Source of the DNA: a virus
Strand: one strand, 5' to 3'
Virus record (IMG/VR): IMGVR_UViG_3300029156_000010
Span: 1-35,034 of that record
DNA: 35,034 nucleotides
The notes under the pieces are model-generated. The model did no database searches. It worked only from the letters and a program-made list of their open reading frames with translations, and had not been told where the DNA came from. Positions 1 to 35,034 of this stretch are shown one piece after another (position 1 is the first letter of the stretch; each line of letters opens with the position of its first letter). A program made the translations under genes and the position numbers.

Positions 1-99
1 TTTCCCATTCAGCACATCCACGTCAAAAAGATAAGAAGTGTCTGAGTTGCCTACTATATCACCTGAAAGCACGCGCTCTTGCTTGGTGCCATTGTAGTT
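1..99. repeat. 99-bp direct terminal overlap, identical to 34936..35034. This is a circular-assembly closure or terminal redundancy.
   Basis: Bases 1-99 (tttcccattcagcacatcca...gtgccattgtagtt) recur exactly at 34936-35034. Confidence 0.95.
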
Positions 100-813
100 T
101 GTGTACCCGTTGTGAGCTATGTTTTGCGCTGATATTCTAAAATCTTCATTGTCTGAATCGAATCTAAAGCCACCGTCGTCATCTGTAAAAAGTGAAGCAC
201 CTGTTCCTAAATTAATATATACAAAATTGCCATTTTCACCCGCATTACGTCTCATGGTAGCTGAGTAATCAGAATGAACGCTGTTAGCTGTCGACCTAAA
301 ATCGAAGCCTGTGGTCGTTGCAAGTTCTGCTATGGCGCTTAAATAACCAAGTTCAACGATATTTGCATCACCCTTAACCATATGGTTAAAAAGGTTTATA
401 CGATCGGCATCGGTAGTTCCTTGAAAAGAGATTTGCTTACCGCCATGAGTAACAATGGTGTTGCTTGGCGTAAGAGATCCGCTACCCTGATAAATACTTT
501 GACCTAGACTAGAAGCTAAACCCCATGCGTAAAAACCACCCGCCGAAATAGGGACATAAAGATTTGCATCAATAGGGGCGTCAGGGAGCCCGTAGGTAAC
601 CACATCACCGGTAACATCAACTTCAGTAAAGTTCCCAGCTTCAAAAGTGTAGGATGATCCGCCAAGAGGTATATCGGTTGTGAATGTTGCAGGTTCGTCT
701 GTCAAGAGGGTTAAAACCTCTGTGCCTTGATTGTAGTTGAGGGATGTTACGTTTGACCCATCTCCACCACCACCGCCAGAGCCTTTTTTAGGATAGGTAG
801 CGTAGAAACTCAT
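1..813 (-). CDS. Tail fibre protein, N-terminal part. The gene continues across the circular junction into 33970..34935, giving about 592 aa in total.
   Basis: ATG at 813..811 overlaps the TGA of the upstream gene (ATGA). I checked all triplets from 813 down to 1 and found no stop. The frame is continuous with ORF 33970..35007 through the 99-bp overlap (..NYNGTKQERVLSGDIVGNSDTSYLFDVDVLNGK..). The N-terminus is MSFYATYPKKGSGGGGGDGSNVTSLNYNQGT. Confidence 0.8.
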   Translation of the reverse strand, partial: MSFYATYPKKGSGGGGGDGSNVTSLNYNQGTEVLTLLTDEPATFTTDIPLGGSSYTFEAGNFTEVDVTGDVVTYGLPDAPIDANLYVPISAGGFYAWGLASSLGQSIYQGSGSLTPSNTIVTHGGKQISFQGTTDADRINLFNHMVKGDANIVELGYLSAIAELATTTGFDFRSTANSVHSDYSATMRRNAGENGNFVYINLGTGASLFTDDDGGFRFDSDNEDFRISAQNIAHNGYTNYNGTKQERVLSGDIVGNSDTSYLFDVDVLNGK

Positions 814-5735: not shown

Positions 5736-6118
5736 GGGTTTAAGTCCTTTGTTACCATTGTATATTTTTGTTCATGTTTTTGAAAATTAAATTTTTCTGC
5801 GCGATTTATAACCGCCTGCATCTCTGTGAAACCTATAAGGGTCTTGAACCCCATGCCCATAGCTTCCAAAACAACACACTCGATACATTCGTCTAAAGCC
5901 TCGGTTCTTGATTCTTTATCAATGTTCGGGTTGTATATAATGCTTTCGATAAGGCAAATAGAACTATCAGTCTGGTAAAGAAACGCCGCTGCAATGTTGT
6001 CAACGATGAATCCTACATCTGGATAGCTATGATTTGGAGGTGGTTTGACCCCATGAGACTGCCACCACCCTTCAAACTGGTCAAAGTCATCTTCTCTGTA
6101 TCTACGTGCGCCGATCAT
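5723..6118 (-). CDS. GNAT-like (acetyltransferase-fold) protein in the slot between the tail hub and the needle/ejection genes.
   Basis: 131 aa. RYREDDFDQFEGWW, AAAFLYQTD, LEAMGMGFKTL and RAEKFNFQK follow GNAT strand/helix order. The canonical R/QxxGxG/A loop is not obvious. Confidence 0.45.
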   Translation of the reverse strand: MIGARRYREDDFDQFEGWWQSHGVKPPPNHSYPDVGFIVDNIAAAFLYQTDSSICLIESIIYNPNIDKESRTEALDECIECVVLEAMGMGFKTLIGFTEMQAVINRAEKFNFQKHEQKYTMVTKDLNPWDL

Positions 6119-9078
6119 GATGTCCCAAAGTTGTTGACTGCTGAGTATTTTCGGAGAGTCTTTTTGACTCCGACCTCTAAAGCAATGTTAGAAAGGCTAT
6201 ATCCTTCGCCAAATGTATTCAAATGAGTTTGACTGTCTTGAAATCTGAATCTAAGGCTTGTGCACTTTTGCTGCGTCATGTGAGTCTTAAATTCGTACAA
6301 AGGGTACCCTCCGCCATAGCCAAAAGATGAATCATCGGAACCATATGGGGACGTGTCTCCATAAGCCTGGATATTATATACATCACCAATGTCGATAGTT
6401 GCAAACTGTGAGAAGTTAGGATTGAAATCATACCCGATAGCCACTTCCATTTTGTGGTCTGACTTGTAATCACCTAAGAAAATCATACGGTAAATACGCT
6501 GGAACCCCTGCATTTGAGCCATGGAGATCCATCCAGTAGTGATTTTCATTGAAATGGGTAGGTTGCCATCGGTAAATGAATCGTTTTCTTTCCATACCTG
6601 ACCGTCAGAGCGAAGATATACGAATCTTCCATCCCATACATCGGAATCTTCTGCTGGTTGGTTTGTGAATGTGCCCCACTGGTTAAAGTAGTAATCGTAC
6701 ATTAAGGTCGTACCTTCTTCAGTAACGTATCGAATCTGGTTAGTATCTGGAACAGATGCACCTGAAGAAATGGTTAATCCGTTAAAGCCTTCCACTCGGT
6801 CGCCTATGTATTGAACCTGTAGAGATCTATTTATAATGTATATGCCCTTTGATGACTTGAACATGATACCATCTGGGGTTTGCTCTACCGAGTTAGGGTC
6901 TACACAACCCGCGTCAGTGGTGATCAATTGAGCATCTCCATAATCAGAGCCACCGCCTGCACTGTTTGGTCCGTCTCCAGAGATGAAGAACACCGCTTGG
7001 CTCTTGAAAAGCAAGAGGTTTGAATCAAGTACAGCCAAAGCAGTAATCGGGCCGCCTTCAGCATCAACACGGTCGCCAAATTCGCTAACAAACTCCACTG
7101 GCAGCCCAGCTTCGCGCTCTTTTGAGTATGCGTAAGTAAGTTGGTCAGGCAATCCAGCAAGAAAGACTCTGTTTTTATACGTAACAACCAAAGAAGAGGA
7201 CGGGGGCGCAGTATTTTCAAAGATTCCGCCAGTTGTATAGAGCAAATCGTTTGTGATAATCGTTTCATCCGACAACGTGTCAGTGAAATTCAAAGAATCT
7301 ACATCCGTGTCATTTAAAAGCGGTGCTATGATGGATGTCACGCGGTAATAATTGGTGCCATCGGCTGTGGTTCTGTAAACAACAAGACGAACTGGAGCGC
7401 GGTTGTCTCGCTTGGCAGTAAGTCTCAATGTAGGGATGGTAATATCAACACTCTGCGATGCTCCTCCTCCAGATAAGACCAATTGCTCTGCAATAGATGG
7501 GGCTGATCGGTGAATCTGACCTAAATTGTCAGTCCATTCGTAACAAATTTGATATGATCTTGTTCCATCTGACAAAGATCCGCCTGCTGCTTGAGCTGTG
7601 AACGTCGATCCTTCTGGAAATAAATGGAAATTGTGTTCTGTCACGCTTACGCCGTCATAAGATTGAAGGATCCCGCCCACAATATGAAGTTGACCAAGCT
7701 GCGCGTTTTGAAATTTGTTTTCGCTGGAGAAATCTAGGGAAGTGGCGAAGATGCCGAACGTAGAGAAGATCTCGCTGTCCTCTGTATCAATAGAAGTCTT
7801 TTCTTGGTGGCCAAATAGGAAAGTACTAGGACCAATTTGGGGCACTTCAGTCAATAATGAGTTGCCAGAGTGATCTCCAGAGGTACCGTATGACATTTTT
7901 GCAACGATGTTACCCTCATTTGAGACAGTGAAGTAGGTAGATTGGAACTGACTGACGTGTACTACGTTCACATAACATAGATCATTGAAGATAAAGACCT
8001 TGGACGCAAGCCCAACGCTTCTTTTAAACACTCCAAGGACTGAAAACGATCCAGTGATGTCAATTGTACTGGTTTGGATCAAGTAATCCTGCGTTTCAGC
8101 GTTAGAAATCGTATACCAGAGCTGCATCTGGTTACCCACAACACATCCAGTCATGTTTACAACATCCGCAATCGTTTCAATAACCGTAACCGGAAGCAAT
8201 TCAGCTAGAAGGAAGTTATATACAGTGACTGCAATTTCATCTGAGGCATTCGAGAAGGAAATCCATACATTTTGATTTTCGTCAGTGGTGATGAAAAGAG
8301 CGTTTGTAGCGTTTTGGGGTATAAAAGTAGGGGCAGAAATAACAAATCCGTCCGTGATTGTTCTTACGCTGACCGTGCTCGTATCATCATGGTACGCAAC
8401 AAATTGACGATCGCCAACAAGCACTACATCATAATTGTTTGAAGCATTCATGTCATTTGTGAATATAAAAGGCCCTGCGATGTCTGAAGGGGTGTTCTTA
8501 GACACATACTGATATCGAAGTGAGGTGTCACCGGCTTCGGTGTACCAAATAACCAAGAAGTCACCGAGTTTGGTTACTTTAGGTGCTGACGCGTCCACAG
8601 ATAGCTGCTTATCGAACACGTAAACAGTTCCGAACTGCTGGTCTATAACAGAGAAACGAACGCCGCCACGGTCATCCTCCCAAGCATAACAAGTAATGTT
8701 ACCCAAAGAGTCGCAACTTACGTTGTTTTGATCATATCCGTTCTTGATAATGGGTGCATCCTTGGCAATTACAGATACAACGTTTCCTTTTTCGACCCAT
8801 GAGCGGTTAGTTTTCCCGTAGGAATACATTTTTTTGCCTGTGTAGAGGTTTAATTCATCGTTATATATGCCAATAGCTTCCCCGGCTTCGATTTCACCAC
8901 CACCTGTAATGGTTTTGGGCAGTGTTTCGTATCCAAATCGCTTGTTAAGAGCCCCTGCTTTTGTAAATACAGCATTTTCAAGCTCTAAAAGTTCAGCAGG
9001 CGTGACAAGCTTTTCATCTTTCTTGGTGTTGATACCGCTTGTCATCGACACATTGACTGTTTGGCGCATTAAAGGCAT
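6115..9078 (-). CDS. Large tail hub / nozzle-type structural protein (987 aa).
   Basis: It is the longest ORF, beta-rich, with repeats that suggest a propeller. It has an ATGA overlap with the next gene. The call rests on position after the adaptor and fibre genes; no enzymatic motif was seen. Confidence 0.5.
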   Translation of the reverse strand: MPLMRQTVNVSMTSGINTKKDEKLVTPAELLELENAVFTKAGALNKRFGYETLPKTITGGGEIEAGEAIGIYNDELNLYTGKKMYSYGKTNRSWVEKGNVVSVIAKDAPIIKNGYDQNNVSCDSLGNITCYAWEDDRGGVRFSVIDQQFGTVYVFDKQLSVDASAPKVTKLGDFLVIWYTEAGDTSLRYQYVSKNTPSDIAGPFIFTNDMNASNNYDVVLVGDRQFVAYHDDTSTVSVRTITDGFVISAPTFIPQNATNALFITTDENQNVWISFSNASDEIAVTVYNFLLAELLPVTVIETIADVVNMTGCVVGNQMQLWYTISNAETQDYLIQTSTIDITGSFSVLGVFKRSVGLASKVFIFNDLCYVNVVHVSQFQSTYFTVSNEGNIVAKMSYGTSGDHSGNSLLTEVPQIGPSTFLFGHQEKTSIDTEDSEIFSTFGIFATSLDFSSENKFQNAQLGQLHIVGGILQSYDGVSVTEHNFHLFPEGSTFTAQAAGGSLSDGTRSYQICYEWTDNLGQIHRSAPSIAEQLVLSGGGASQSVDITIPTLRLTAKRDNRAPVRLVVYRTTADGTNYYRVTSIIAPLLNDTDVDSLNFTDTLSDETIITNDLLYTTGGIFENTAPPSSSLVVTYKNRVFLAGLPDQLTYAYSKEREAGLPVEFVSEFGDRVDAEGGPITALAVLDSNLLLFKSQAVFFISGDGPNSAGGGSDYGDAQLITTDAGCVDPNSVEQTPDGIMFKSSKGIYIINRSLQVQYIGDRVEGFNGLTISSGASVPDTNQIRYVTEEGTTLMYDYYFNQWGTFTNQPAEDSDVWDGRFVYLRSDGQVWKENDSFTDGNLPISMKITTGWISMAQMQGFQRIYRMIFLGDYKSDHKMEVAIGYDFNPNFSQFATIDIGDVYNIQAYGDTSPYGSDDSSFGYGGGYPLYEFKTHMTQQKCTSLRFRFQDSQTHLNTFGEGYSLSNIALEVGVKKTLRKYSAVNNFGTS

Positions 9079-12465: not shown

Positions 12466-13704
12466 TTACGCTAGTTGAATGTTTCCGTTGTAGCCTGGAG
12501 CGTTACACTGTAGCTGACCGTAGTAGCCGTAGCGAACTTCCACACCATCGGATGATGCTTGACGCAACATTTGTAGACCATCGGTATCGATGACTCGAAC
12601 TGCTTTACCCATGGAGCAAAGCTTGAAAGTGCTTAATTGCACCATGAAAGCTCTGTCAGATGGACAGTTTTGATCAGGGATTACGTTGATCGGGCCTTTA
12701 GGACCGTTCACGAGAATACCGCGGAAGCCAATTTCTGGGTTCACTTTAAGATCTACATATTGCAATTTAGACTCCAAAGCTTTCTCAAGAGCTGCATAAC
12801 GATCGTAAGACATGAATGCGTGGTCAACTTTACCACCTTCACGTGCTACTCGGTTTGCACCTTCAATAAGGGCTTCTTCAATTGGATCGCCTGAACCATC
12901 GTAACGAATTCCGCCTAAGCGAGTCGTATCTACAGAACGGTCAACACCAAAGAAAGGAGTTGCGGTTGGAACTAAGTTCGGGATCCATGCGCGTAGACCA
13001 GAGGTCTTAAGTGCGAATGGAGAAGCGGTATCCTGACGGTCACCTGCGACGAACATTGTATCACCTAGCGCAAGGCCGGTAACGGTGTTCAGTACAACGT
13101 TGACTGTGAAGGTACCTGCTGAACGATCAATCGTTTGGATGATTGCTTGAGAACCAGCATCGCGTAGTGCGCCTGTGTTTTCAAATTCAGCAAAGACCAA
13201 TACCTGGCCTACTTCGAAGTTAGTGATTGAATTTGGATCAGTCAAAACAACGGTCTGAGTTGCTAGGTCGGTTGCAGCACCAATGGTACCGATTCCGCCG
13301 AAGCCTGTTCCGTATAGTTCGATTGCCAAAGAACGGGTTAAAGTGTTGATTGCGCCGTCGATTTCGGTTGTGGCAGCTTCCATAAAGGCATTTTCGTTAC
13401 CTTTTGAAGCTTCCAAAGTTTCGTTGTCGATGGTTGCAATTGAATAATCTTTTACACGAGTCAAAGTGAATTGATCGATTAAAGAGTTAGTGACCTGTCC
13501 ACGAGCTTGTGCTTGCGCAAAGTTCGCTGAACGTCCTTGAGGGTTGCCGTAAATCAATGGAACGGGTTTATTACGTCCACGGAATTCGGTTGATTTTGAT
13601 ACAAGTGCCAAGAACGGGTTGTCTTGATACACCATGTTTTCAACGCGTTGATCTGTATAATGTTCTTTCAGAGCAGCGTCGAAGGAGACCATATCTAAAG
13701 CCAT
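12466..13704 (-). CDS. Major capsid protein (412 aa).
   Basis: The size fits, and the gene follows the scaffold gene. It has a good SD (AAGAAGG) and its own downstream terminator. The N-terminus MALDMVSFDAALKEHYTDQRVENMVYQDNPFLALV is typical of phage coat proteins. Confidence 0.8.
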   Translation of the reverse strand: MALDMVSFDAALKEHYTDQRVENMVYQDNPFLALVSKSTEFRGRNKPVPLIYGNPQGRSANFAQAQARGQVTNSLIDQFTLTRVKDYSIATIDNETLEASKGNENAFMEAATTEIDGAINTLTRSLAIELYGTGFGGIGTIGAATDLATQTVVLTDPNSITNFEVGQVLVFAEFENTGALRDAGSQAIIQTIDRSAGTFTVNVVLNTVTGLALGDTMFVAGDRQDTASPFALKTSGLRAWIPNLVPTATPFFGVDRSVDTTRLGGIRYDGSGDPIEEALIEGANRVAREGGKVDHAFMSYDRYAALEKALESKLQYVDLKVNPEIGFRGILVNGPKGPINVIPDQNCPSDRAFMVQLSTFKLCSMGKAVRVIDTDGLQMLRQASSDGVEVRYGYYGQLQCNAPGYNGNIQLA

Positions 13705-15169: not shown

Positions 15170-17047
15170 TCACACCCCATCAAGTGGTAATAAATTGCTG
15201 GTAGGGTTCTGTTCTGGAACCGCTATCGGTTGTTCTTGTGCCTGCTGCGCTGCAATTGCTGCCGCGGCTTCAAGTTCTGCTGCCTCTATCATGGCTTTGT
15301 TTTGATTCATGAACTTCTGCAATAGGGCAAGTTTGTCCTCTGGGACTTTGTTCATTTTGGCCTGTAGATAAGCTCTCTGTGTATATTCAATGTTGTAGGT
15401 TAGATCCATGTAAGGTTCTGGGGAGGTGTAGCGCCCTTCCTCTATCATACCTTCAATGATTTCTTTCAAGATCTCGATACTTGCTGTCTTGTTATCTACA
15501 TAAGATTCAATGTCAGGGAAATCTAACAAATCAAGAGCGTATGCTTTATCGATGTATCCTGCCTGGGTTAATTCTTGAATGTGTTGCAATCTACCTTGTG
15601 GAGTTTTTGGCAGTTGGCTGACAGGGAAGGCTGTCATAACGAACTTATCATCTTCCAAGTCCACATCTTCCCATTTAATGGTTTCGATGAATTTCTTGCC
15701 TTTAACTTTTACTTTTAGATCATTGTCGTCTTGCTCATGAAGGTCACGGCTCATGTCAATGATGATTTTAGATGCGTCTAGGAACATTTTTTCGTATCGC
15801 TGGGCTGTCAGTGCAAAGCGTTCTGACTCGATATCGTTGTATTCACGAATAGCCACACCTGCATCAAGGCCAGATGGCTTCTTACCTGTGGATGAAAGCT
15901 GGTTAATGCCTACGTTTTCAAAGGCTTTGTTGTAAAGGTTCTCTAAGTGTTGGTAAACCTCTGGGGACATTGCTGGAGGGGTTACCGCTTGAGGGGGTGT
16001 GATGTTGAATTTAACTACCCCACCATCTAAGTTATTCAGATGCTGAGTATTTACCCCACTTGAGTTTTCGACCAACCATTTAGGGTGACACATGAGGTGC
16101 ATAGCTTTTTGAATGGTTCTGAGAAGTTTGTTAATCTCAATTTGAATGCCTTTGATTTCCTCTGGGATGCCTGCGCCATAAAAGCCAAGAACTTTGTCGC
16201 ACCACCTGAAAAACACAAACGGAAAGTATTCTTTGTCGTACTGCTCTTCAAACAATGTAGCAGTGCTGATTACGATTGCATGGTGGCCGTCGGATGCCCC
16301 ACCCCCACTTTTTAGATGCCATGCCTCTGTAACCTTTACTAGGTCAGCAGATGATTTGCTTGATGTGTCTCCGTCCACACCGCCTTCTGCTTGCTTGATT
16401 TCCGTGCGATACTTTGGAAACATTTCGTACAAAACGTCTCGACTGATGTACTTAGTTTGAAAGAGTTGTTGGGGGGACCCATACATGCCATCTGCTTGAT
16501 CTACGATGATTTCGTCAATGATGACGCGTTCGATTTCGATTTCGCCTGTGGAGTCGTTTCTAATGAATTTTAAGCAGCCTGTACCGAAGATTTCACCATC
16601 TTTAAAGGATTGTTGGGCTTTTGTGTACATGTCTTGAGATTCAAAGACACCTGCAATATATTTAGATAGTTTCTTGGCTCTGCTCTGCTGTGAGTAGTCG
16701 CCTTTTTCGGTTAAAAAGAGTGGGCGGGGTTTGTTTTTAGCTATTTTTGATTCTGCTGTGTCGACAATGGACTTGATTACGTTAAGTGTTACGCCTGTAT
16801 TTTTGGCGGATGTTTGAGAGGTTGGCTTTTGAACGCCATATAAGCCCTGAAAGGCTTCATTACTGTACAATCTTAAATGTTGGCGGTTTCGATTGATTCG
16901 ATATACCTGCTCTTGATTGATTAACTCTACAATGCCGTTGATATCGGCAAACATCTCTTTGCCTTTTGAGTGCCACCACTGATTTTGAATCTTTGTGGTT
17001 TTTCGTTCTGGATTGACTTGTTTTGTAGTTACTTTTGGTATTGCCAA
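15170..17047 (-). CDS. Portal protein (625 aa).
   Basis: The size fits, and it lies downstream of TerL. The C-terminal tail is Ala/Gln-rich (AAELEAAAAIAAQQAQEQ), as in many podovirus portals. Confidence 0.8.
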   Translation of the reverse strand: MAIPKVTTKQVNPERKTTKIQNQWWHSKGKEMFADINGIVELINQEQVYRINRNRQHLRLYSNEAFQGLYGVQKPTSQTSAKNTGVTLNVIKSIVDTAESKIAKNKPRPLFLTEKGDYSQQSRAKKLSKYIAGVFESQDMYTKAQQSFKDGEIFGTGCLKFIRNDSTGEIEIERVIIDEIIVDQADGMYGSPQQLFQTKYISRDVLYEMFPKYRTEIKQAEGGVDGDTSSKSSADLVKVTEAWHLKSGGGASDGHHAIVISTATLFEEQYDKEYFPFVFFRWCDKVLGFYGAGIPEEIKGIQIEINKLLRTIQKAMHLMCHPKWLVENSSGVNTQHLNNLDGGVVKFNITPPQAVTPPAMSPEVYQHLENLYNKAFENVGINQLSSTGKKPSGLDAGVAIREYNDIESERFALTAQRYEKMFLDASKIIIDMSRDLHEQDDNDLKVKVKGKKFIETIKWEDVDLEDDKFVMTAFPVSQLPKTPQGRLQHIQELTQAGYIDKAYALDLLDFPDIESYVDNKTASIEILKEIIEGMIEEGRYTSPEPYMDLTYNIEYTQRAYLQAKMNKVPEDKLALLQKFMNQNKAMIEAAELEAAAAIAAQQAQEQPIAVPEQNPTSNLLPLDGV

Positions 17048-17323: not shown

Positions 17324-18721
17324 TCAATAATCATCTTCTTCCCAAAATGCCTTGGCTTCGTTCTCTTCCATTTTTTCCGCTTCTTTTTCCCACCATTGGT
17401 CTACAGCCTCCACAGAATGAGGTGAAACCGGTTTTTCTATTGGGCGTGAAAGGTAACTGTAACAGAACCTGTACCCATATAGAGCGGCATCTGCCAAGTG
17501 ATTTGGACATGATGCATTTTCAATACGTTTAGACCCTCTGTCATCCCATATTAAGTTTAGCCACTCATTGACAAGATCGTATGTTTCAGACTCTACAAGC
17601 TTGATTACCCCTTGGATAAGGTCACCGTTCATTATCTCAATGAAGTCACTTTTACCTGTTTTGTCAGCAGCTACCCATGGAACATTATGACGGCGGCGCA
17701 TCTCTTCGACTGCTTGCTTGTTTGCCCCATCAATGATCATTTTCATGGGGTTGTAATCTTTCATCAATACTTTTGCGTACTCAGCCACGTCCGTGACGTC
17801 CATTTTCTTCTTTTTGTACGTGTGAACTATGTACGGATGGGGGTGGTGCTCATTCCAAGCGTAAACAACATAGGCTGTGTCGTCCTCGTATCCAATATCG
17901 CAAGCCACAACGTAGTTCCATTTTGGCATTTCTGGCAATTTTGAAACAAGGTTTCGGGCCTCTTGATATTTGTAGACAAGTTTATCTTCATCAACAACCC
18001 ACTGATTGAGATACATTTGTTTGTAAAGCGGGGTCTCAACAATAGCGGGGTTTTTCTCTATTAAGCCTTTGATTTGCCTATTAACAGGGCCACGGGTGTA
18101 TGGGTTGTCATCAAAAGTCCATTTGTGAACATCCCAACCAGGCTCTTTGCCGGTGGTAACTTCATTGAAAAATGTTTTGGTTCTATTTCCTGTGGTACCG
18201 ATCATGCAAATCGTACCGTTGTAATCAGCTACAGCAGGCTGGAGGGTTTTATATACAATTTCTTTAAGATCCACTCGGAACGATGCACATTCATCGATCA
18301 CAACGAGTTTAAACTTCTGACCAAGGGCTTTTTCTTGCTCTTTTTCACTCTGGTCCATACCTACGCAGTAAATAATAGATCCGTTTGCGAAGGTGACTGT
18401 TAATTCGTTTTGATTAAATTTTACTTTTATTTTAAAGCGGCGGGCGATGTCTTTGAAAACATCTTTAAACATAATTCTTTTGGCTGAGGCGCTTGTTAAA
18501 GCTACATACAGACAGGAAACGCCTGGATTTTCCAGAGCTTCTTTAAAAAGATACAACCCCATGCCATAAGATTTACCAGCACGTCTTGAACACTGCGCTG
18601 CCTTAAGGGTTGAAGGGTTGTTTATGAATTTTGTCTGGGTAGGAAAAGAATCACGAAGAAGATCCACTGTTTTTTCAGCAGCGATATACCTCTTTATGAT
18701 TGCTTTTTCTTTTCGATTCAC
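17324..18721 (-). CDS. terL: Terminase large subunit.
   Basis: It has a Walker A-like motif (CSRRAGKSYGMG) and a Walker B motif (KFKLVVIDECASF). The C-terminal half is nuclease-like with conserved acidic residues (VACDIGYEDD, MIIDGANK). The size is 465 aa and the gene lies upstream of the portal gene. Confidence 0.9.
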   Translation of the reverse strand: MNRKEKAIIKRYIAAEKTVDLLRDSFPTQTKFINNPSTLKAAQCSRRAGKSYGMGLYLFKEALENPGVSCLYVALTSASAKRIMFKDVFKDIARRFKIKVKFNQNELTVTFANGSIIYCVGMDQSEKEQEKALGQKFKLVVIDECASFRVDLKEIVYKTLQPAVADYNGTICMIGTTGNRTKTFFNEVTTGKEPGWDVHKWTFDDNPYTRGPVNRQIKGLIEKNPAIVETPLYKQMYLNQWVVDEDKLVYKYQEARNLVSKLPEMPKWNYVVACDIGYEDDTAYVVYAWNEHHPHPYIVHTYKKKKMDVTDVAEYAKVLMKDYNPMKMIIDGANKQAVEEMRRRHNVPWVAADKTGKSDFIEIMNGDLIQGVIKLVESETYDLVNEWLNLIWDDRGSKRIENASCPNHLADAALYGYRFCYSYLSRPIEKPVSPHSVEAVDQWWEKEAEKMEENEAKAFWEEDDY

Positions 18722-24147: not shown

Positions 24148-24231
24148 GGATATAGTTTGGTGAACATCCCGAAGGACATAGTCTGATTTTATACCAGATT
24201 GTGCCCTCCGGTCAACAAGGAGAGCAAGAAA

Positions 24232-24801
24232 ATGAGTTTATACGCAAAATTAATTACAATACAAAAGCAAGTCAGTGGTTTAAAAAAGGATTCTACTGGA
24301 CATCGATATAACTATGAATCACTCGATTCAATTATTCAGTTATTACACCCAAAATTAAAAGAACAAAACTTGGCTATTATGCATACAGTTGAGCCTTTAG
24401 GTAACAATGAGTCAGTCTGCGTGACCACTTTGTTAAACCCTGAAGGGGAAATGATTCAATCTAAATGCCCGATCGGTGATGTATCTAAGATCTTGGCAAA
24501 GGGGAATATCATGCAGGGCATGGGGTCAGCGATAACCTATGCCCGCAGATATAATATCAAAAACCTGTTCAATCTTTACAGTACGGACGATGACGCAGCC
24601 ATTCTAGATCATAATCCACTTTCTAAAAATCAAGAAAAAGAGATTTACCAACTACTTAAAGAGCTTGAAGGTGTAAAAACTTTTGATCAGAATGCTTTTT
24701 ACGGATGGTTAGAAACGGACGACGTAACAACCCTTTCAGAGTCTAAGGCAAAACAAGCCATATCTTTCATGAGAACAAAGAAAGTGGCAGGTTCTAAGTG
24801 A
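24232..24801 (+). CDS. erf: ERF-family single-strand annealing protein.
   Basis: Three segments parallel P22 Erf: LYAKLITIQKQV, YNYESLDSIIQLLHPKL and GSAITYARRYNIKNLFNLYSTDDD. The SD is AAGGAGAG. Confidence 0.85.
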   Translation: MSLYAKLITIQKQVSGLKKDSTGHRYNYESLDSIIQLLHPKLKEQNLAIMHTVEPLGNNESVCVTTLLNPEGEMIQSKCPIGDVSKILAKGNIMQGMGSAITYARRYNIKNLFNLYSTDDDAAILDHNPLSKNQEKEIYQLLKELEGVKTFDQNAFYGWLETDDVTTLSESKAKQAISFMRTKKVAGSK

Positions 24802-25460
24802 TTGGCGAACGTGTAAATGTAATCCAAGGTTCAGATGAATGGCACCGGCTTCGGCTTGGTGTCATCACTGCCAGTAAGTTGCAAAAATGCTTTACTGGGA
24901 AACTAGCTATAAGCAAAGCAGGGTGTAAAACTTTGGCAAAAGAGTTAGCTGCTGAACTTGTTTACAAGAAAAATGAGGAAATCCCGCAAAACTTTTCAAC
25001 ATATGCCATGGACAGGGGCAACTTGTTGGAACCAGAAGCCGTAGAGACAATTGCTGAAATGGTTAAACAAGACTCTCCAGAATTAATTTTAAAGCCTGGA
25101 GCTTTTTATTTAAACGACTTGATCAATGTTGGAGCTTCTCCAGATGGTGAATTTTTTGGCCCCGAAAAAGTTATTGATATGGGCCTTGAAGTTAAATGCC
25201 CACTACCCAAAGGACATTTGGAGTACCTTCTTCAGTGCCAAGAGGAAGAAAGGGAAACTCCTGTAGAGCATTATGCTCAAGTTCAGCTTAATATGATGCT
25301 GACTGGAGCTAAAAAATGGCTTTTTGCTTCATATTGCCCTGGAGCAGTAATGCACCTGGGATACCAAGAGCGAGACGAAGAGTTTATTTCTTTGATTATG
25401 CTAGTGGTTGAATCAGTTAACAATCAATTAAACCATTTCAGACGTGTTCTGGGGGTCTAA
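24798..25460 (+). CDS. YqaJ-type (lambda Exo-like, PD-(D/E)xK) recombination exonuclease.
   Basis: The N-terminus is QGSDEWHRLRLGVITASK, and later motifs are SPDG and LEVKCP. The GTG start overlaps the erf stop. Confidence 0.85.
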   Translation: MIGERVNVIQGSDEWHRLRLGVITASKLQKCFTGKLAISKAGCKTLAKELAAELVYKKNEEIPQNFSTYAMDRGNLLEPEAVETIAEMVKQDSPELILKPGAFYLNDLINVGASPDGEFFGPEKVIDMGLEVKCPLPKGHLEYLLQCQEEERETPVEHYAQVQLNMMLTGAKKWLFASYCPGAVMHLGYQERDEEFISLIMLVVESVNNQLNHFRRVLGV

Positions 25461-26069: not shown

Positions 26070-26464
26070 TGAACGATAGACAAAAACTTGAAGAAATTCA
26101 AAAGCGAATCGAAAAAATCATAGAACTAGAAAAAGAAGGAGTCAAACAGGATCTAACCCCCTCAAACTTAGACGATTTAGGCACCCAGGCGGCCTTTGCT
26201 TTCTATAAATTTTACAAAACAAGAGACAAAGTGATTAGTGAAATGGCTTTAAACTCAGAAAGCATGGACTCAAATGAAGTTAAAGCGTTTGTTACATCGT
26301 TGGACATTACCGAAGATGTCATGGATATGCTTTACAAAAAATGCAACCTGCACGAGAGAGCCATTAAAACAAAACTTGCTGAGGAAAAAATCAAAGAGCT
26401 TTTGGATGATGGATTCGAGGAAGGAGAAGAGCATGTACACAGAAGAGAGAGAACAATTAATTAG
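26069..26464 (+). CDS. Hypothetical acidic helical protein (131 aa).
   Basis: ORF with a TAATG overlap. Confidence 0.6.
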   Translation: MNDRQKLEEIQKRIEKIIELEKEGVKQDLTPSNLDDLGTQAAFAFYKFYKTRDKVISEMALNSESMDSNEVKAFVTSLDITEDVMDMLYKKCNLHERAIKTKLAEEKIKELLDDGFEEGEEHVHRRERTIN

Positions 26465-27689
26465 CAAGGCATGGAGAGACCTTTCTGCCTGCGAGCCCCC
26501 TAAAAAAGGCACTGCTATGTACCGAGAAGTGGAGTCTTTACGTCAAGAATATGAAAAATATCTTCGGTTAAGGTCCTGCGGTTGGGATGGTTCAGATTTA
26601 AATGATGAAAAGGCAAAAGAAATCGTTGCGAGAAACAAGACCTTGCCAGATCCTCGTGGATTACCACCGTTTTCGGAACCTACAATCACTTTGGATACAT
26701 CGGATCCGCTGAAGCATATGTTTGATCCACTTCTGAATAGCTTAATGAACAGCATTTCAGAACCAGAACCAAAATTAAAAAAGAAATCAAAAAAAGGAAA
26801 AAAAACAGTGAAACAAGAAAACTACCTAGGCGATGCTTTAATCAAGGACATTACAAAACACATACAAGACAATATCGTTTTGCCGATAGATCGCATTGAA
26901 AAAATGGTTAATAACTGTATGAAAAAAAACTTGCCAACCAGAATATCTATAAAAAAGAAGGGTTCCAAAAAGCACTCTATAGAATTGGTTCACAAAAACT
27001 TTGAAACACTTCTTAAAATAGCTGAACAGCGTATCCCTGCTTTTGTTGTCGGGCCAGCAGGATCTGGCAAAACAAAGGCGGCCGAGCAAGTAGCTGTAGC
27101 CCTTGCGTTGGAGTTTTCTAGCATCTCTGTCGGGCCACAAACAACACAATCTCAAATCATGGGGTATATGAATGCCACCGGTAAGTACGTTAAAACGGAA
27201 TTTAGAGAGCGCTTTGAAAAGGGCGGTGTTTATCTTATTGATGAATTTGACAGTGGATCAGCTCAAGTATTGACTTGCTTAAATTCTGCCCTTGCGGGTG
27301 ATTTGTGCGCATTCCCAGACGGTATGATTAAAAAGCATGAGGACTTTATCCCAATTGCCAGCGGTAACACCTTTGGGAATGGAGCTGATAGAATTTACGT
27401 TGGCAGAGCCCAGCTTGATGGAGCGACGCTTGACCGATTTGCCTTCCTTGAATGGGAATATGACGAGGCTTTGGAGCTACAAGTTAGTGGTGCAATCCCT
27501 GAATGGCACAGAACGGTACTTAGCTTTCGAAAACGTGCAGAGGAAAAGGGGATGCGTCATATTGTTTCGCCTCGTGCAACAATATACGGACAAAAACTTA
27601 TCGAAGGCGGAATGCATCCAGAGGAAGTGAAAAAGCTTCTTATCTTCAAGGGTCTTTCTCGCGCCGACATTGAACGGTTGGACGTATAA
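26433..27689 (+). CDS. AAA+ ATPase, MoxR/CobS (AAA_5)-like (418 aa).
   Basis: It has Walker A (VVGPAGSGKT), Walker B (VYLIDEFD), and GNTFGNGADRIYVGRAQLDGATLDRF. The start at 26433 follows GGAAGGAGAAGAG. The upstream part of the ORF-track frame overlaps the previous gene and is probably not translated. Confidence 0.8.
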   Translation: MYTEEREQLISKAWRDLSACEPPKKGTAMYREVESLRQEYEKYLRLRSCGWDGSDLNDEKAKEIVARNKTLPDPRGLPPFSEPTITLDTSDPLKHMFDPLLNSLMNSISEPEPKLKKKSKKGKKTVKQENYLGDALIKDITKHIQDNIVLPIDRIEKMVNNCMKKNLPTRISIKKKGSKKHSIELVHKNFETLLKIAEQRIPAFVVGPAGSGKTKAAEQVAVALALEFSSISVGPQTTQSQIMGYMNATGKYVKTEFRERFEKGGVYLIDEFDSGSAQVLTCLNSALAGDLCAFPDGMIKKHEDFIPIASGNTFGNGADRIYVGRAQLDGATLDRFAFLEWEYDEALELQVSGAIPEWHRTVLSFRKRAEEKGMRHIVSPRATIYGQKLIEGGMHPEEVKKLLIFKGLSRADIERLDV

Positions 27690-27690
27690 A

Positions 27691-28566
27691 ATGTTTGACG
27701 AAGTTCTAAAAAAGCATCCAGAGGTTATGTATCGAGGGTATGATAATTACTGGGATTTTCTTGAAAAAGCCAAAAGAAAACCATTAAGCGATATGGACTC
27801 TTCCAGGGATCCTGGAGGTAGATGTTGGTCAGGATCTACTTCTTTTGAAGAAACAGTAGACTGGGCTGAGCGCGGTTGGAACAAAGAAATAAAGTGCGAA
27901 CAATTTATCCCAAACAGCGTCAAAGAGTACGTTAAGGAAGTATCTGGAACGTCTTATAGTTGGGATACATGTGGAGCAATACCAGATGTTGAAAGGTATT
28001 GCTCTGGATTGCCAGAGGACATGATTGACTTTGTTCAAAGCCCTATTCAAAAAAGAATTATTTCCCTGGGCTTCAATGGAGCTATTCTCGGAGGTATTGA
28101 CCCAGAATCAGTTGAAAAAAGAGGGTCTTTTATATGTGAATGCATAGATTTAATCGAGTCTATGGGGTTTCAGTGTAACGTTACGGCCATTTTTCTTTCA
28201 GCCGGTCAGGTAGATATGGGAAAAGGGGACATTGACGATGGATTTAGCTTGATTGGAGTAGATCTTAAGAACGCTGGATACGTAATGAACCCAGACATTA
28301 TCAAGTTTGCCGCCTGCAACGCTTCTTTTTTCAGAAGATTGATTTTTTCCATAAGAGAAAATGATGAAATTATGTACCCAAAGTACCTGAAGCATACAGA
28401 TTCCTATGGAAGAACCTCGGAATTTGAAGATATCGGAGACGTGGAACATGGTTTTGATGTGTATTTTCCTCACTTGGATGACAATGATTTTGATGAAATT
28501 GTTCAAAAAACTTTAGAGCAAATGGAAGAGTGCGGCGTTGTAAAGAAAGGGGTCATCAATGGATAA
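27691..28566 (+). CDS. Hypothetical partner protein of the AAA+ ATPase (291 aa).
   Basis: Its ATG lies 2 nt after the ATPase stop. It is a Cys-containing alpha/beta protein. No MIDAS DxSxS motif was seen. Confidence 0.6.
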   Translation: MFDEVLKKHPEVMYRGYDNYWDFLEKAKRKPLSDMDSSRDPGGRCWSGSTSFEETVDWAERGWNKEIKCEQFIPNSVKEYVKEVSGTSYSWDTCGAIPDVERYCSGLPEDMIDFVQSPIQKRIISLGFNGAILGGIDPESVEKRGSFICECIDLIESMGFQCNVTAIFLSAGQVDMGKGDIDDGFSLIGVDLKNAGYVMNPDIIKFAACNASFFRRLIFSIRENDEIMYPKYLKHTDSYGRTSEFEDIGDVEHGFDVYFPHLDDNDFDEIVQKTLEQMEECGVVKKGVING

Positions 28567-31433: not shown

Positions 31434-31806
31434 TGTTTTTTCCTTCTTCGAATAGATGATAAACTAACGCAGCATCGTCCTTGTTCAAACTGGTTGTGCG
31501 CGGTCCTTTTCTAAGTATCAAGTATATCCCTGATTTTTCTTTTCGCAAGAACAAAACTTTCTCGCTTAGATCCGCGGGGTTGTAAGTGTATATCTCATTT
31601 ATGACGCGCTCCAGATAACGCACTCCATTTGTACCCGACCTAAAAAAAAGATCCATCGTCACTTCATTTCTTTCGATTTGCATTACAATTAGATCATCTT
31701 GGCAATACTTGTCCGCGATATAGGCGCAGGTTTCTAGCATTTGACGTATAAATAGAGATGTTTTTTTTAGGTCATCTTTTGCTTTTTGGTTTGCCGGTAT
31801 AATCAT
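31411..31806 (-). CDS. Hypothetical protein (131 aa) between the endolysin and the holin.
   Basis: ORF with an ATGA overlap with the endolysin stop. Confidence 0.6.
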   Translation of the reverse strand: MIIPANQKAKDDLKKTSLFIRQMLETCAYIADKYCQDDLIVMQIERNEVTMDLFFRSGTNGVRYLERVINEIYTYNPADLSEKVLFLRKEKSGIYLILRKGPRTTSLNKDDAALVYHLFEEGKNNGNTEKH

Positions 31807-32249
31807 ACCATTTTATATTTCTCAAGCATTTCCATGGACAATTTCTTGTATCTTTGAATTCCATCATCATCTTTGTAGCAAATCCAACGACCATGACCTT
31901 TTCTGTCATCCGCATGAACCCCACCAACAATGTTTTCTTGTTTTTTCCACCACCAATCACGATAAACACCGAGCCCGCCAAAGCCAAAACGCTCCGCTGC
32001 AAAGTATAAATCCATCGGCCTAACGCCTGGGGCTATTAAATCTGCTGCAATGCCGCGCCCGTGCTGGCCTGAATCATTGGGCCTATACGCGGATGTGACA
32101 AAAATTGGCACCCCAAGATGGTCTCTTAATACATCAAGCTTTAAAAGAAGTCCTCTTTTCATCTTCGATGGGTCGCCCCAATTATCTACCTTTGAATCGG
32201 GTCTAAAGTACCTTATCCCCGTCCACTGAATCATTCCCTTGGTTCGCAT
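31803..32249 (-). CDS. Endolysin, Peptidase M15-type (zinc D-Ala-D-Ala carboxypeptidase-like fold).
   Basis: LDVLRDHLGVPIFVTSAYRPNDSGQHGRGIAADL and later GGVHADD fit the H-x6-D ... H zinc-site pattern of M15A/VanY-like peptidases. The SD is GGGGGTGAG. Confidence 0.85.
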   Translation of the reverse strand: MRTKGMIQWTGIRYFRPDSKVDNWGDPSKMKRGLLLKLDVLRDHLGVPIFVTSAYRPNDSGQHGRGIAADLIAPGVRPMDLYFAAERFGFGGLGVYRDWWWKKQENIVGGVHADDRKGHGRWICYKDDDGIQRYKKLSMEMLEKYKMV

Positions 32250-33122: not shown

Positions 33123-33155
33123 TGCATGGTCTTTTTGGGTGTTTTCCTGACAAGA

Positions 33156-33389
33156 TTATACTACATCAACCTTTACTTTCTCAAATTTATAATACTCGAA
33201 GCCTCGAATACGAACTTCTTTAACGTCAAATAAGGCTGATAGAGCTTTTTTAATTAACAAAACATTTTCATTATTCAATGTTATGCCAAGTGTTTGACAA
33301 ATGACGCTGTGTACTTTCCCTCTTGGAACTTTCTTTTGATCAGAAAATATAGAGGCTACTTGAATCATTTTTTCAAACTTTTCACTCAT
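33156..33389 (-). CDS. Hypothetical protein (77 aa).
   Basis: It has a TAATG-type overlap with the upstream gene. Confidence 0.55.
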   Translation of the reverse strand: MSEKFEKMIQVASIFSDQKKVPRGKVHSVICQTLGITLNNENVLLIKKALSALFDVKEVRIRGFEYYKFEKVKVDVV

Positions 33390-33973
33390 TATTTACCGCC
33401 CTTAGAAGATTTACTGCCAGAAGCACTCACTTTAGTTGGCAAAGAGTAGTTTAAGTCTTGCGGAAAGTGGCGGTGTCGCCAGTACATAATTTCACCGTCG
33501 TTCTTTAGATACTGCTTTAGATCAGCATCCCGCAAATAATCCTCTGTAATGTCAACCCATATAAGATCAAAGCATTTTAAAACAAACTTTGTTGTGAGGT
33601 TTACGTTGTTGACGTCTCCATTGACAACGGTTTCACCGTTCTTAGGAGGGAACATTGATATCACGCTCGCATCTTTTTCAATGATTGTGATTGATACGTT
33701 TGGGTGGCATATGTAGTCGTTGACCATGCCCATACCATGACCTATCATAAGTACACTTACTTGTGATTCATTTTGAGCAAGTTCCGCCACTTTATCAATT
33801 AACGGCTGGTTAGTGAAATACTCATAGGGTAGATCACTCATTATAATTTCATCACCATCACGAAGGATGTTATACGTCTGACCCACTACTGCATTTTTAA
33901 AATAAGCCCCCCATGAATCAGGATAACTTTGCGGGGTAGTGTTTTTGTAGGATATTTGTATTTTTTCTATCAT
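33389..33973 (-). CDS. Spermidine-synthase-like / class I SAM-dependent methyltransferase-fold protein (194 aa).
   Basis: Five segments are collinear with E. coli SpeE motifs. ILRDGDEIIMSDLPYEYF aligns with LDGvvQttErDEfiYHE. VLMIGHGMGMV aligns with VLIIGGGDG. ITIIEKD aligns with ITMVEID. VVNGDV aligns with VIDDG. FDLIWVDITED aligns with FDVIISDCTDP. Confidence 0.6.
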   Translation of the reverse strand: MIEKIQISYKNTTPQSYPDSWGAYFKNAVVGQTYNILRDGDEIIMSDLPYEYFTNQPLIDKVAELAQNESQVSVLMIGHGMGMVNDYICHPNVSITIIEKDASVISMFPPKNGETVVNGDVNNVNLTTKFVLKCFDLIWVDITEDYLRDADLKQYLKNDGEIMYWRHRHFPQDLNYSLPTKVSASGSKSSKGGK

Positions 33974-35034
33974 TGTGGCATTTTCACTTCCGCATCAATG
34001 GACAAACCTTGTGGAGGTATTCCGCCAGTCAACGTCCCAAACCTTACTTGTAAATAATCGTTTTGTGCGATTGTATTGTTGGTACAAATTAAAGTTAGCG
34101 TGGTTTCAGTTGTAAGTGTACCACTTGCAATGGACACACCTGATTTCCATATTTGTATAGCAATAGAACCACCTCTTGCAAGACCCTGTGTAAAAGTAAC
34201 TTCCACAGATTCAACGCGACCCCCAACCATTGTTCTATGGAAGTTTATGTATTCTGGGTAAACAATGCTTGGGGTTACGTCAACCCCTTCACCAAGTATA
34301 CTTATATTCAAAAACTGGTTTTGGATCTCCACGGCGCCTAAAACAGAGGCCACCGTTCTTTGAGAAATTTCTTTTGTAGTAGGGTTTCTAACAAGCAAAG
34401 ATGGTGCAGTATCGAAAGTTGGTGGGGCTTGCTCAAGTATTACGTCAGGAGCATCCAAAACAAGGTCAAGTCCAGCCCTATAAGTTGCGTTACCCGTGTT
34501 TGACACCATTAATATGTCGCCCGACTCGGTGTAGTAATCTATGTTTCCGCTATCAAGCCCAACCGTAAAAGAGTTTGTAGTAGTTGAGAAAATTTGAAGC
34601 TCACCACCGCCAACAAGTTCCACCTGTCTATTGGGAACTGTGCCATTTGCATTGTAAAGAGTGTCAACCGACCCACCTCCACCGCCGACATTGCCAGGCT
34701 GGATAAGGTAAAATTTACCATTACTGGGGTTTAAGAAAGCTACAACCACATGGTTTCCCGTACCTAAAGGAGTTAAGTCCCCATCAAATAACGCAGCATC
34801 AAAAGTTATATCGTTTGGCGAATCGTTGTTTATATACATGTTGTAGCGTTGACCAGCATTAGACCCCCACCTTGTGTCGGATGCCTGCCATCCAATAACC
34901 AAGCCGCCACTGTGGCCTGAATTTAACGAAAGAATTTTCCCATTCAGCACATCCACGTCAAAAAGATAAGAAGTGTCTGAGTTGCCTACTATATCACCTG
35001 AAAGCACGCGCTCTTGCTTGGTGCCATTGTAGTT
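33970..35034 (-). CDS. Tail fibre protein, C-terminal part of the wrapped gene (same gene as 1..813).
   Basis: The frame is open to the window end. The GTG 'start' at 35007 in the ORF track is internal. A second GGGGG motif (QPGNVGGGGGSVDTLYNANGT) is present, and the C-terminus is beta-rich. Confidence 0.8.
   Translation of the reverse strand, partial: NYNGTKQERVLSGDIVGNSDTSYLFDVDVLNGKILSLNSGHSGGLVIGWQASDTRWGSNAGQRYNMYINNDSPNDITFDAALFDGDLTPLGTGNHVVVAFLNPSNGKFYLIQPGNVGGGGGSVDTLYNANGTVPNRQVELVGGGELQIFSTTTNSFTVGLDSGNIDYYTESGDILMVSNTGNATYRAGLDLVLDAPDVILEQAPPTFDTAPSLLVRNPTTKEISQRTVASVLGAVEIQNQFLNISILGEGVDVTPSIVYPEYINFHRTMVGGRVESVEVTFTQGLARGGSIAIQIWKSGVSIASGTLTTETTLTLICTNNTIAQNDYLQVRFGTLTGGIPPQGLSIDAEVKMPQ
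34936..35034. repeat. Second copy of the 99-bp terminal overlap (same as 1..99).
   Basis: Exact identity with bases 1-99, read directly from the sequence. Confidence 0.95.

Follow-up and report, generated by a model that had tools for sequence, protein, structure and literature searches.

A short methyltransferase-fold protein encoded behind a putative fibre gene in a phage genome

The stretch of DNA analysed here is a phage genome sequence of 35,034 nucleotides (IMG/VR record IMGVR_UViG_3300029156_000010, positions 1 to 35,034; the whole stretch is called the window below). On its minus strand, it carries an open reading frame (ORF) of 194 amino acids (aa) at 33389..33973, whose product is very probably a methyltransferase that depends on S-adenosylmethionine (SAM). 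A fuller description, according to which the protein is a minimal SAM-dependent and probably N-directed methyltransferase encoded by a horizontally mobile phage accessory gene that is co-expressed with the late genes, is favoured with moderate confidence as a joint claim. The family to which the protein belongs is already labelled 'methyltransferase' by PHROGs and by GenBank annotators, and the window protein is a divergent new member of it; as the evidence stands, it is one more small phage SAM-dependent methyltransferase. The ORF had been pointed out in an earlier reading of the letters alone (the sequence-only reading), which compared its product with the spermidine synthase SpeE and described an ATGA overlap with the gene upstream. 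Both the ORF and the overlap were read directly on the minus strand.

The protein family and its predicted fold

The ORF is a real gene, as judged from 41 relatives with E-values down to 1e-26 and from an AlphaFold model with a pLDDT of 90.6. The relatives were collected with phmmer, which was run exhaustively against 1.8 billion cluster representatives (best E 1e-26), and are nearly all 150-210 aa long; the 41 aligned sequences are only about 21-38% identical to the window protein. The family as a whole, roughly 300 proteins of about 165-200 aa, is carried by diverse phages and other mobile elements. Searches with the 194-aa protein alone returned PHROG 15480, annotated as 'methyltransferase', with an E-value of 1.9e-8. 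Nothing was found below E 0.46 in the PDB, tblastn against 50,697 phage records gave no match, a word-indexed search of 5.8 billion proteins retrieved only the protein itself, and single-protein searches of IMG/VR yielded no close relatives; nor did the wide alignment contain a pattern that could be used for this purpose. The Pfam matches of the family members are scattered over generic methyltransferase families, with RrnaAD in seven and Spermine_synth in five of them. The parts of the gene to which the argument refers are the following:

33389..33973 (stop codon included), minus strand: methyltransferase-fold gene, an ATG-to-TAA ORF of 194 aa, identified by its relatives, AlphaFold, Foldseek and PHROG 15480
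33809..33841, minus strand: N-terminal signature, residues 45-55, M-S-D-L-P-Y-E-Y-F-T-N, in the family M-[SC]-[ND]-T-x-x-E-x-x-[TS]-N
33728..33742, minus strand: motif I loop G78-H-G80-M81-G82, read from the sequence; counterpart of the SpeE loop GGGDG, with Met at the Asp position
33677..33679, minus strand: E99 at the end of β2 (motif II), invariant in 41/41; aligns with the Glu of SpeE 'MVEID'
33614..33616, minus strand: D120 after β3 (motif III), invariant in 41/41; aligns with the second Asp of SpeE 'IDDG'
33539..33553, minus strand: D141-I-T-E-D (motif IV) at the β4 end, in which D141 presumably positions the acceptor or takes part in catalysis
33392..33475, minus strand: C-terminal tail, residues 167-194, 28 residues, basic and Ser/Lys-rich, predicted with low confidence

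Six residues are invariant in the alignment (G78, G80, E99, D120, D136 and D141) and five are nearly so (M45, E51, L75, G160 and W165). The invariant residues are found at the places that are typical of class I methyltransferases, namely in the G-x-G-x-G loop after β1, at the acidic end of β2, at the Asp after β3 and at the Asp that ends β4. In class I methyltransferases, the acidic residue ending β2 contacts a ribose hydroxyl, and the Asp after β3 contacts the N6 of the adenine. In the N-terminal signature, 40/41 relatives have M45, 39/41 have E51, and N or D occupies position 47 in 40/41. We infer that residues 45-55 form a lid over the active site. Behind D141, T or S occupies position 143 in 20/41 relatives and E or D occupies position 144 in 20/41, and the Pro of the SpeE motif is absent; the sequence D-x-[TS]-[ED] is kept in 10/15 of the closest relatives.

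With the 41-relative alignment, AlphaFold produced a model with the pLDDT given above and a pTM of 0.83; the prediction made without an alignment reached a pLDDT of 42 and was unusable. In the model, an N-terminal module, which consists of a strand (2-8), a helix (19-25), a hairpin (33-39/42-46) and helices (49-68), precedes a core with the strands β1 (72-77), β2 (93-99), β3 (115-118), β4 (135-140) and β5 (156-164). Foldseek matched the model to 166 PDB chains at E<=1e-3, essentially all of which are class I methyltransferases or spermidine synthases, and a search of the viral library BFVD gave a similar picture. On this basis, a class I Rossmann methyltransferase fold is predicted with confidence. 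The structured part stops at about residue 165, and the family likewise ends about 0-10 residues past W165, directly after β5. The three N-terminal strands of the model (2-8, 33-39 and 42-46) might complete a seven-stranded sheet. The sequence-only reading had allowed for the protein being a structural or chaperone relic that lacks a Rossmann methyltransferase/SpeE fold or the residues for cofactor binding; the fold is predicted and the cofactor residues are invariant at low sequence identity, which argues against a relic.

The family is acidic, with a median pI of 5.2, and the core of the window protein has a pI of 4.5 and a net charge of -10. The 28-residue tail, by comparison, has a pI of 10.2; it is predicted with a pLDDT of 61-71 and is a feature of this protein only, being absent from all 14 close relatives that were compared. 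Contact with nucleic acid, contact with the virion and packaging are possible roles of such a tail on an otherwise acidic enzyme.

Two retrieved proteins stand apart from the rest. P0030, a 2697-aa surface protein with PKD repeats that matched residues 15-77 of the query four times, was judged to be a chance match amplified by the repeats and was excluded from the alignment. P0040 (L040 2091-3113) is a 340-aa fusion of a methyltransferase-like domain to a β-rich C-terminal region of about 175 aa. The idea that this region is a head-decoration-like domain was dropped; the PDB, tblastn against phages and hhalign comparisons with the small pre-capsid proteins of L001/L002 all returned nothing.

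Cofactor, proposed mechanism and acceptor

Position 81, which corresponds to the Asp in the GGGDG loop of SpeE, is occupied by Ile in 31, Leu in five, Met in four and Val in one of the 41 sequences, and never by Asp. In SpeE, this Asp fixes the aminopropyl amine of decarboxylated SAM (dcSAM) and is thought to repel the carboxylate of SAM (Junker et al., PMC3725402). The exchange D103I alone abolished the spermidine synthase activity of a plant SpeE and led to a measurable putrescine N-methyltransferase activity, and plant putrescine N-methyltransferase (PMT) has a conserved Ile at this position (PMC3725402). The earlier proposal that the loss of the dcSAM-selecting Asp points to a different substrate is thus strengthened by the hydrophobic residue in 41/41 sequences and by published mutagenesis, which resulted in methyl transfer from SAM. 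Generic methyltransferases are likewise hydrophobic at the equivalent position, an example being GAGIG in plant phosphoethanolamine N-methyltransferase (PEAMT). The functional SpeE genes of phages and viruses that have been described so far come paired with speD (PMC9992855), and neither SpeD nor another polyamine enzyme turned up in those ORFs of the window that were scanned. With the loop Asp replaced in 41/41 sequences and no speD among the scanned ORFs, the protein is in effect ruled out as an aminopropyltransferase, and its cofactor is expected to be SAM.

In the proposed mechanism, SAM rather than dcSAM would be held by the G78-x-G80-M81-G82 loop, with E99 contacting the ribose and D120 the adenine. 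D141 at the end of β4 would position and deprotonate the nucleophile, aided by T143, E144 and the conserved N-terminal M45...E51...N55 segment, and the methyl group would be transferred to this nucleophile, for which the nitrogen of a cationic amino or guanidino group is the most probable candidate. Through the probable coupling of its gene to that of a 592-aa putative fibre protein, the enzyme would be produced during virion assembly.

The nearest enzymes by profile and fold are nearly all N-alkylating. They include the archaeal m4,2C synthase (PDB entry 8vyd), PEAMT, SpeE, KsgA, guanidinoacetate N-methyltransferase (GAMT), NodS and NTMT1, and coclaurine and pavine N-methyltransferases, MtfA and BpumL are also among these matches. 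A second acidic residue is located three positions past D141, as in SpeE. A nitrogen nucleophile on a cationic substrate is favoured because the nearest enzymes are N-alkylating, β4 ends with an invariant Asp and the family is acidic, and because a (D/N)PP(Y/F) motif and a target-recognition domain are absent. On a rough estimate, a protein amino group, for instance of a fibre-like or virion protein, has a slight lead as acceptor over a small amine or polyamine, which is level with all other acceptors together, and nucleic acid comes a little behind; each of these by itself is less likely than not.

Several points weigh against the interpretation as a minimal N-methyltransferase. By itself, the window protein hits no Pfam family, its only match being RrnaAD at E 0.19, its NCBIfam matches are far under the cut-offs, and the residues following D141 are variable across the wider family. 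The canonical strands β6 and β7 are absent, and only β1-β5 follow motif I (the canonical sheet order is 3-2-1-4-5-7-6); that so short a core is catalytically competent is an assumption. The binding of SAM is deduced from sequence only, and the preference for an N-acceptor derives from resemblance and charge, not from a defining motif. Finally, the genomic contexts of the relatives diverge and comprise fibre-like, DNA metabolism and anti-restriction surroundings.

The late unit and the neighbours of related genes

Positions 1-99 of the window are identical to positions 34936-35034. Because of this exact 99-nucleotide terminal duplication, the window is regarded as a circular (or circularly assembled) phage genome with a unit of 34,935 bp. 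The genes at the two window ends are contiguous across the circular junction, and a differently permuted copy of the contig with an independent gene call has the product chain 757, 120, 592, 194, 77, 105 aa and so on. The immediate surroundings of the methyltransferase gene are:

33970..35034, minus strand: C-terminal 354 codons of the 592-aa ORF (putative fibre or receptor-binding protein), whose TGA shares bases with the start ATG of the methyltransferase gene
1..813, minus strand: N-terminal part of the 592-aa ORF on the other side of the circular junction; positions 1-99 repeat 34936-35034
33156..33389, minus strand: 77-aa ORF, whose ATG overlaps the methyltransferase stop; final gene ahead of the promoter-like site
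33155-33184, minus strand: promoter-like site TTGAGA-18-TATAAT, sigma-70-like with 11/12 matches, the best of the region, just past the 77-aa ORF

The 194-aa gene is the penultimate gene of a long late unit on the minus strand. Its start ATG (33973-33971) and the TGA of the upstream ORF (33972-33970) overlap in ATGA, its TAA overlaps the ATG of the downstream 77-aa ORF in TAATG, and no terminator-like site was found between the 592-aa ORF and the 194-aa gene. Late expression together with the virion genes, which the sequence-only reading had assumed, is consistent with these codon overlaps and with the absence of a terminator-like site, and the 194-aa gene is probably translationally coupled to the 592-aa putative fibre gene. 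The 77-aa ORF had no family match in the Pfam and PHROG scans, and no homologue of it adjoins the relatives of the methyltransferase gene. A separate unit, to which the lysis genes (M15 peptidase) would belong, could start at the promoter-like site downstream.

According to the ORF reconstruction, the 592-aa ORF begins at window position 813, crosses the window junction and finishes at 33970 on the minus strand. The only hints that it is a modular receptor-binding protein are two poly-Gly linkers, GSGGGGGDGS and GNVGGGGGS, and the location of the gene, which closes the tail module. It has no PHROG, no PDB relative and no homologue besides itself among 5.8 billion proteins. Of the earlier statement that the methyltransferase-fold gene is coupled to a tail fibre gene, the ATGA overlap therefore stands, whereas the fibre identity has no relative, PHROG or PDB match behind it.

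The genome is that of a tailed phage. Its other features are:

17324-18721: large terminase, from family searches
15170-17047: portal, from family searches
12466-13704: major head protein, from family searches
6115-9078, minus strand: internal-virion-protein-like protein of 987 aa, with a PHROG 511 region and an amidase-like region (PHROG 5107)
4779-5735: tail-fibre-like protein of 318 aa, from family searches
31803-32249: M15 peptidase, from family searches
24199-25460, plus strand: Erf/YqaJ recombination pair, from family searches
26274-28566, plus strand: AAA_5 ATPase and, behind it, a DUF7192 protein (E 5.5e-34), which form a conserved pair in the early region

The 987-aa protein (6115-9078) is probably an ejected virion protein that degrades the cell wall.

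The methyltransferase gene is the sole gene that the window shares with any related locus. No conserved partner gene was found, the upstream and downstream neighbours are non-homologous between lineages, and a Pfam scan of the immediate neighbours in the IMG/VR loci gave an RNase H-like match only. In one group of loci (L021-L026 and L029), the gene is located between clamp loader/exonuclease genes and the terminase gene; in another (L016-L019), it is flanked by an RNase H-like gene and a nuclease gene, near a DNA polymerase gene, and in six further loci (L012, L013, L015, L020, L027 and L028) it comes second in an operon made up of small genes. Members of the wider family in cultured phages are found among early or DNA-metabolism genes and are annotated 'methyltransferase'. 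Some members lie beside primase/dNMP kinase genes, or among early genes by repressor/helix-turn-helix (HTH) genes with the gene of an essential recombination function protein further downstream. On C. botulinum replicons of about 267 kb (L032/L033 5475-9653; CP013700.1/CP013684.1), a member is encoded between a 490-aa C5 DNA methylase and a PAPS-reductase-like gene. Insertion sequence elements and a Cas6-like gene are located nearby, and the locus looks like a DNA-modification or defence-related island. Other members of the wider family have Lar/DndB/HTH genes as neighbours, or QueD, PD-(D/E)XK nuclease and sugar-modifying genes.

Neighbours of this kind, from the C5 DNA methylase/PAPS-reductase-like, Lar/DndB/HTH and QueD/nuclease genes to the primase/dNMP kinase, repressor/HTH, nuclease/DNA polymerase, ligase/endonuclease and clamp loader/exonuclease genes, would fit a nucleic-acid methyltransferase, which either marks DNA against host restriction or modifies rRNA or tRNA of the host or the phage. 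The best PDB profile match is also an enzyme that acts on nucleic acid, the rRNA m4,2C synthase, and KsgA and Erm match too. Such a role is nevertheless unlikely. The similarity to KsgA/Erm is limited to the SAM-binding half (residues 52-128), and none of the family members contains a motif IV of the type (D/N/S)-P-P-(Y/F/W) or N-[IL]-P-[YF], the window protein having D-I-T-E instead. The PC motif of C5 methylases is lacking as well, the proteins are acidic, and there is no domain for target recognition or RNA binding, as the chain stops after β5 at about residue 165.

A smaller number of relatives is found next to fibre-like proteins. In three loci with a Mu-like head module (L001-L003), the gene follows paralogous proteins of 570-633 aa and a protein of 238-242 aa, all of which are unannotated, and one of these neighbour proteins has a weak tail-fibre match. 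This block precedes the methyltransferase homologue and is found upstream of the gene for the major capsid protein (L001 1613-5993, L002 300-2926, L003 1852-4292); in L001, it is located between the head protease and the capsid gene, which is an unusual insertion in a head module. In L011, the gene is found behind a 683-aa unannotated protein, and in L014 it overlaps the gene of a 263-aa protein with a weak 'tail protein' match, with ligase and endonuclease genes nearby. A homologue with 33% identity is encoded at a chromosomal, non-prophage locus of an uncultured Aquimarina sp. (L039 3689-12323; CANNBP010000002.1). The order of genes there, on one strand, is an Fmt-like formyltransferase, two Phage Tail Collar (PF07484) proteins, the homologue and a 1898-aa Big_12/CHU_C adhesin of the type IX secretion system (T9SS). 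A related metagenome contig (L010) carries a homologue with 64% identity behind an ORF that is similar to the Collar proteins of L039. Taken together, fibre-like neighbours are suggested for perhaps 3-5 of about nine lineages of the close subfamily, and they are not a family-wide trait. The link to fibres that was drawn earlier is thereby weakened: a minority of lineages adjoin fibre-like proteins, and many contexts are early or DNA-metabolism regions. Seen as a whole, these contexts are those of a mobile accessory gene.

It could also be speculated that the enzyme modifies the virion itself, by transferring methyl groups to Lys or Arg residues or to the N-terminal amine of the putative fibre protein (592 aa) or of other structural proteins during assembly; this possibility is rather unlikely. 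The probable translational coupling to the putative fibre gene and the position at the end of the late operon would fit, as would the homologue directly after two Phage Tail Collar proteins in Aquimarina with its similar counterpart in L010, the overlap with the weak 'tail protein' in L014, and the 570-680-aa unannotated proteins, one of them weakly tail-fibre-like, ahead of the gene in L001-L003 and L011. The protein N-terminal methyltransferase NTMT1 is among the fold neighbours, and methylated Lys and Arg residues have been reported in the capsid and tail-fibre proteins of phage virions (PMC13288928). However, the neighbours are non-homologous across lineages, many relatives in early or DNA-metabolism regions have no structural gene nearby, the fibre identity of the window neighbour is unproven, and the fibre-like matches of the relatives' neighbours are weak. 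Methylation of phage structural proteins has so far been ascribed to host enzymes (PMC13288928). If it were true that a fibre or virion protein is methylated by the window protein, this would be a rare phage-encoded modifier and a case of post-translational editing of a phage's own host-recognition apparatus.

A broader and still less probable proposal is that the family consists of minimal five-strand SpeE-like N-methyltransferases with which phages and some Bacteroidota methylate fibre-type receptor-binding proteins or polyamines packaged with the DNA. Candidate targets under this proposal could be the 592-aa protein of the window and the Phage Tail Collar proteins of Aquimarina.

Spermidine synthase and other known systems

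In structural searches, spermidine synthases are nominally the best matches. The top PDB match in Foldseek is the Trypanosoma cruzi spermidine synthase 4yuy (E 1.7e-5, TMq 0.49, 152 columns), and the top match in the viral library is the SpeE of Tupanvirus (E 4.1e-5); the margins over other methyltransferases are small. The alignments with SpeE are longer than most of those with methyltransferases (about 125 columns), which suggests that the N-terminal module also superposes on SpeE. An hhalign comparison of the family with E. coli SpeE gave a probability of 96.4% and an E-value of 1.3e-9 over residues 71-171 of the window protein and 78-197 of SpeE, a span that reaches from motif I to β5. Here GGGDG of SpeE is matched by GHGMG, the Glu of MVEID by E99 and the second Asp of IDDG by D120; D141-I-T-E-D pairs, residue for residue, with D158-C-T-D161-P, the catalytic and amine-binding motif of SpeE (D-[SC]-[ST]-D-P). 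A permissive extension to the N-terminus of SpeE added no score, and homology of the N-terminal sequence to SpeE is thus not claimed. A low-confidence profile alignment places E-x-x-T-N-x-P opposite E-M-M-T-H-V-P of SpeE; no Tyr is aligned with the tyrosine of the SpeE YHE motif in it, with E/P49 or Y50 lying loosely at this position. When scored with the family profile, 8vyd (2.9e-10) and plant PEAMT (1.2e-8) come ahead of SpeE (1.3e-7), and KsgA follows closely (2.4e-7). The window protein reaches none of the curated SpeE thresholds (PF01564, TIGR00417 and PRK00811) and has neither a Spermine_synth match in Pfam nor a speE match in NCBIfam. Among the relatives, the best Pfam Spermine_synth match is 8.4e-5, and the best NCBIfam score is 31.6 bits against cut-offs of 250-472 bits; some family members carry the JGI name 'spermidine synthase'. 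The collinearity with SpeE 'through all core motifs' that the sequence-only reading had described holds from motif I to β5, but not at the N-terminus or in the C-terminal third, and the motifs concerned are generic to class I enzymes. Overall, the likeness is too unspecific for the protein to be regarded as derived from SpeE.

A SpeE-derived enzyme that acts on a small amine, either a polyamine N-methyltransferase like plant PMT or an enzyme that transfers another alkyl group (3-amino-3-carboxypropyl) from SAM, is distinctly improbable. Phage-encoded polyamine enzymes are known (PMC9992855), and the top Foldseek matches in both libraries, the hhalign result for E. coli SpeE, the weak Spermine_synth/aminopropyltransferase matches of some members and their JGI name all point in this direction. 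D141-x-T-E parallels D-x-T-D of SpeE, and Ile or Met at the SpeE Asp site of the loop is the same switch as in plant PMT. Against this stand the thin margins over other methyltransferases, with 8vyd and PEAMT outscoring SpeE in the profile comparison, the absence of the C-terminal third of SpeE and of a Tyr at the YHE position, and the fact that no polyamine gene was found among the scanned window ORFs or beside any relative examined. If a polyamine were indeed methylated, this would be a new reaction in a polyamine metabolism that is already known from viruses.

A catalytically dead protein that has kept the methyltransferase fold and serves as a fibre assembly chaperone or structural component is very improbable. 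Fibre assembly chaperones are often encoded right behind the fibre gene, the gene considered here directly follows a putative fibre gene, and a truncated Rossmann core with a unique, disordered basic tail could be read in the same way. However, all cofactor-contacting positions are invariant across distant relatives, the gene is present in many genomes without an adjoining fibre gene, the post-fibre position is not conserved, and no similarity to a known chaperone family was found in Pfam or PHROG. A genuine spermidine synthase or aminopropyltransferase using dcSAM, for which nothing speaks other than the general resemblance to SpeE and the automatic 'spermidine synthase' names of relatives, is effectively refuted by the replacement of the dcSAM-selecting Asp (0/41 members; an equivalent mutation inactivates SpeE, PMC3725402), by the failure to reach the curated SpeE models at 194 aa against about 290 aa and without β6, β7 and the C-terminal region, and by the absence of speD among the scanned window ORFs, functional phage and virus SpeE having so far been found paired with speD (PMC9992855).

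Of practical value are the correction of 'spermidine synthase' auto-annotations within the family and the definition of its invariant residues. The analysis also identifies an unusually short methyltransferase core, which is an easy target for in vitro work, and in this five-strand core a SpeE-like acidic motif is joined with a PMT-like loop.

PHROG 15480 and the 'methyltransferase' genes of phages belong to the same wider family as the window protein; the family profile retrieves P0048, whose tblastn matches are those genes. Members in cultured phages include those of the Caulobacter phages CcrColossus and CcrPW, Stenotrophomonas phage Bhz59, Microcystis phage Mae-JY35, Thiohalocapsa phage LS06-2018-MD03 and Bacteroides phage BS-TP1. 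These homologues are similar in size (about 185-220 aa), but share only about 25-30% identity with the window protein, and they sit in early or DNA-metabolism regions, not behind a fibre gene as in the window.

The class I N-methyltransferases PEAMT, GAMT, NodS and NTMT1 as well as 8vyd share the SAM motifs and the Asp at the end of β4 with the window protein, with profile matches of 2.9e-10 for 8vyd, 1.2e-8 for AtPMT1 and 2e-5 for GAMT. They are 200-290 aa or longer and possess a full seven-strand sheet and substrate-specific inserts, whereas the window protein is shorter. 8vyd in addition carries a DPPRF motif IV, which is absent in the window protein.

The likeness to SpeE (PF01564, TIGR00417) consists of a class I Rossmann core behind a small N-terminal β module, in which E99, D120 and D141 align with the acidic residues of SpeE for ribose, adenine and catalysis. 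SpeE has a GGGDG loop with the dcSAM-selecting Asp, whereas the window protein has GHGMG, and the Asp is found in 0/41 members. About 100 residues of SpeE are absent here (194 aa vs about 290 aa), which comprise the second N-terminal hairpin, β6, β7 and the C-terminal helices. The C-terminal third of SpeE, which helps to build the putrescine pocket and a gate-keeping loop, has no counterpart in the family. Plant PMT, a SAM-dependent enzyme that evolved from SpeE, retains the full-length SpeE scaffold with about 60% identity to plant SpeE, whereas the window protein is much shorter and very distant. Nevertheless, the two proteins have the same cofactor switch, with Ile in PMT and Met here, and both keep the acidic motif at the end of β4.

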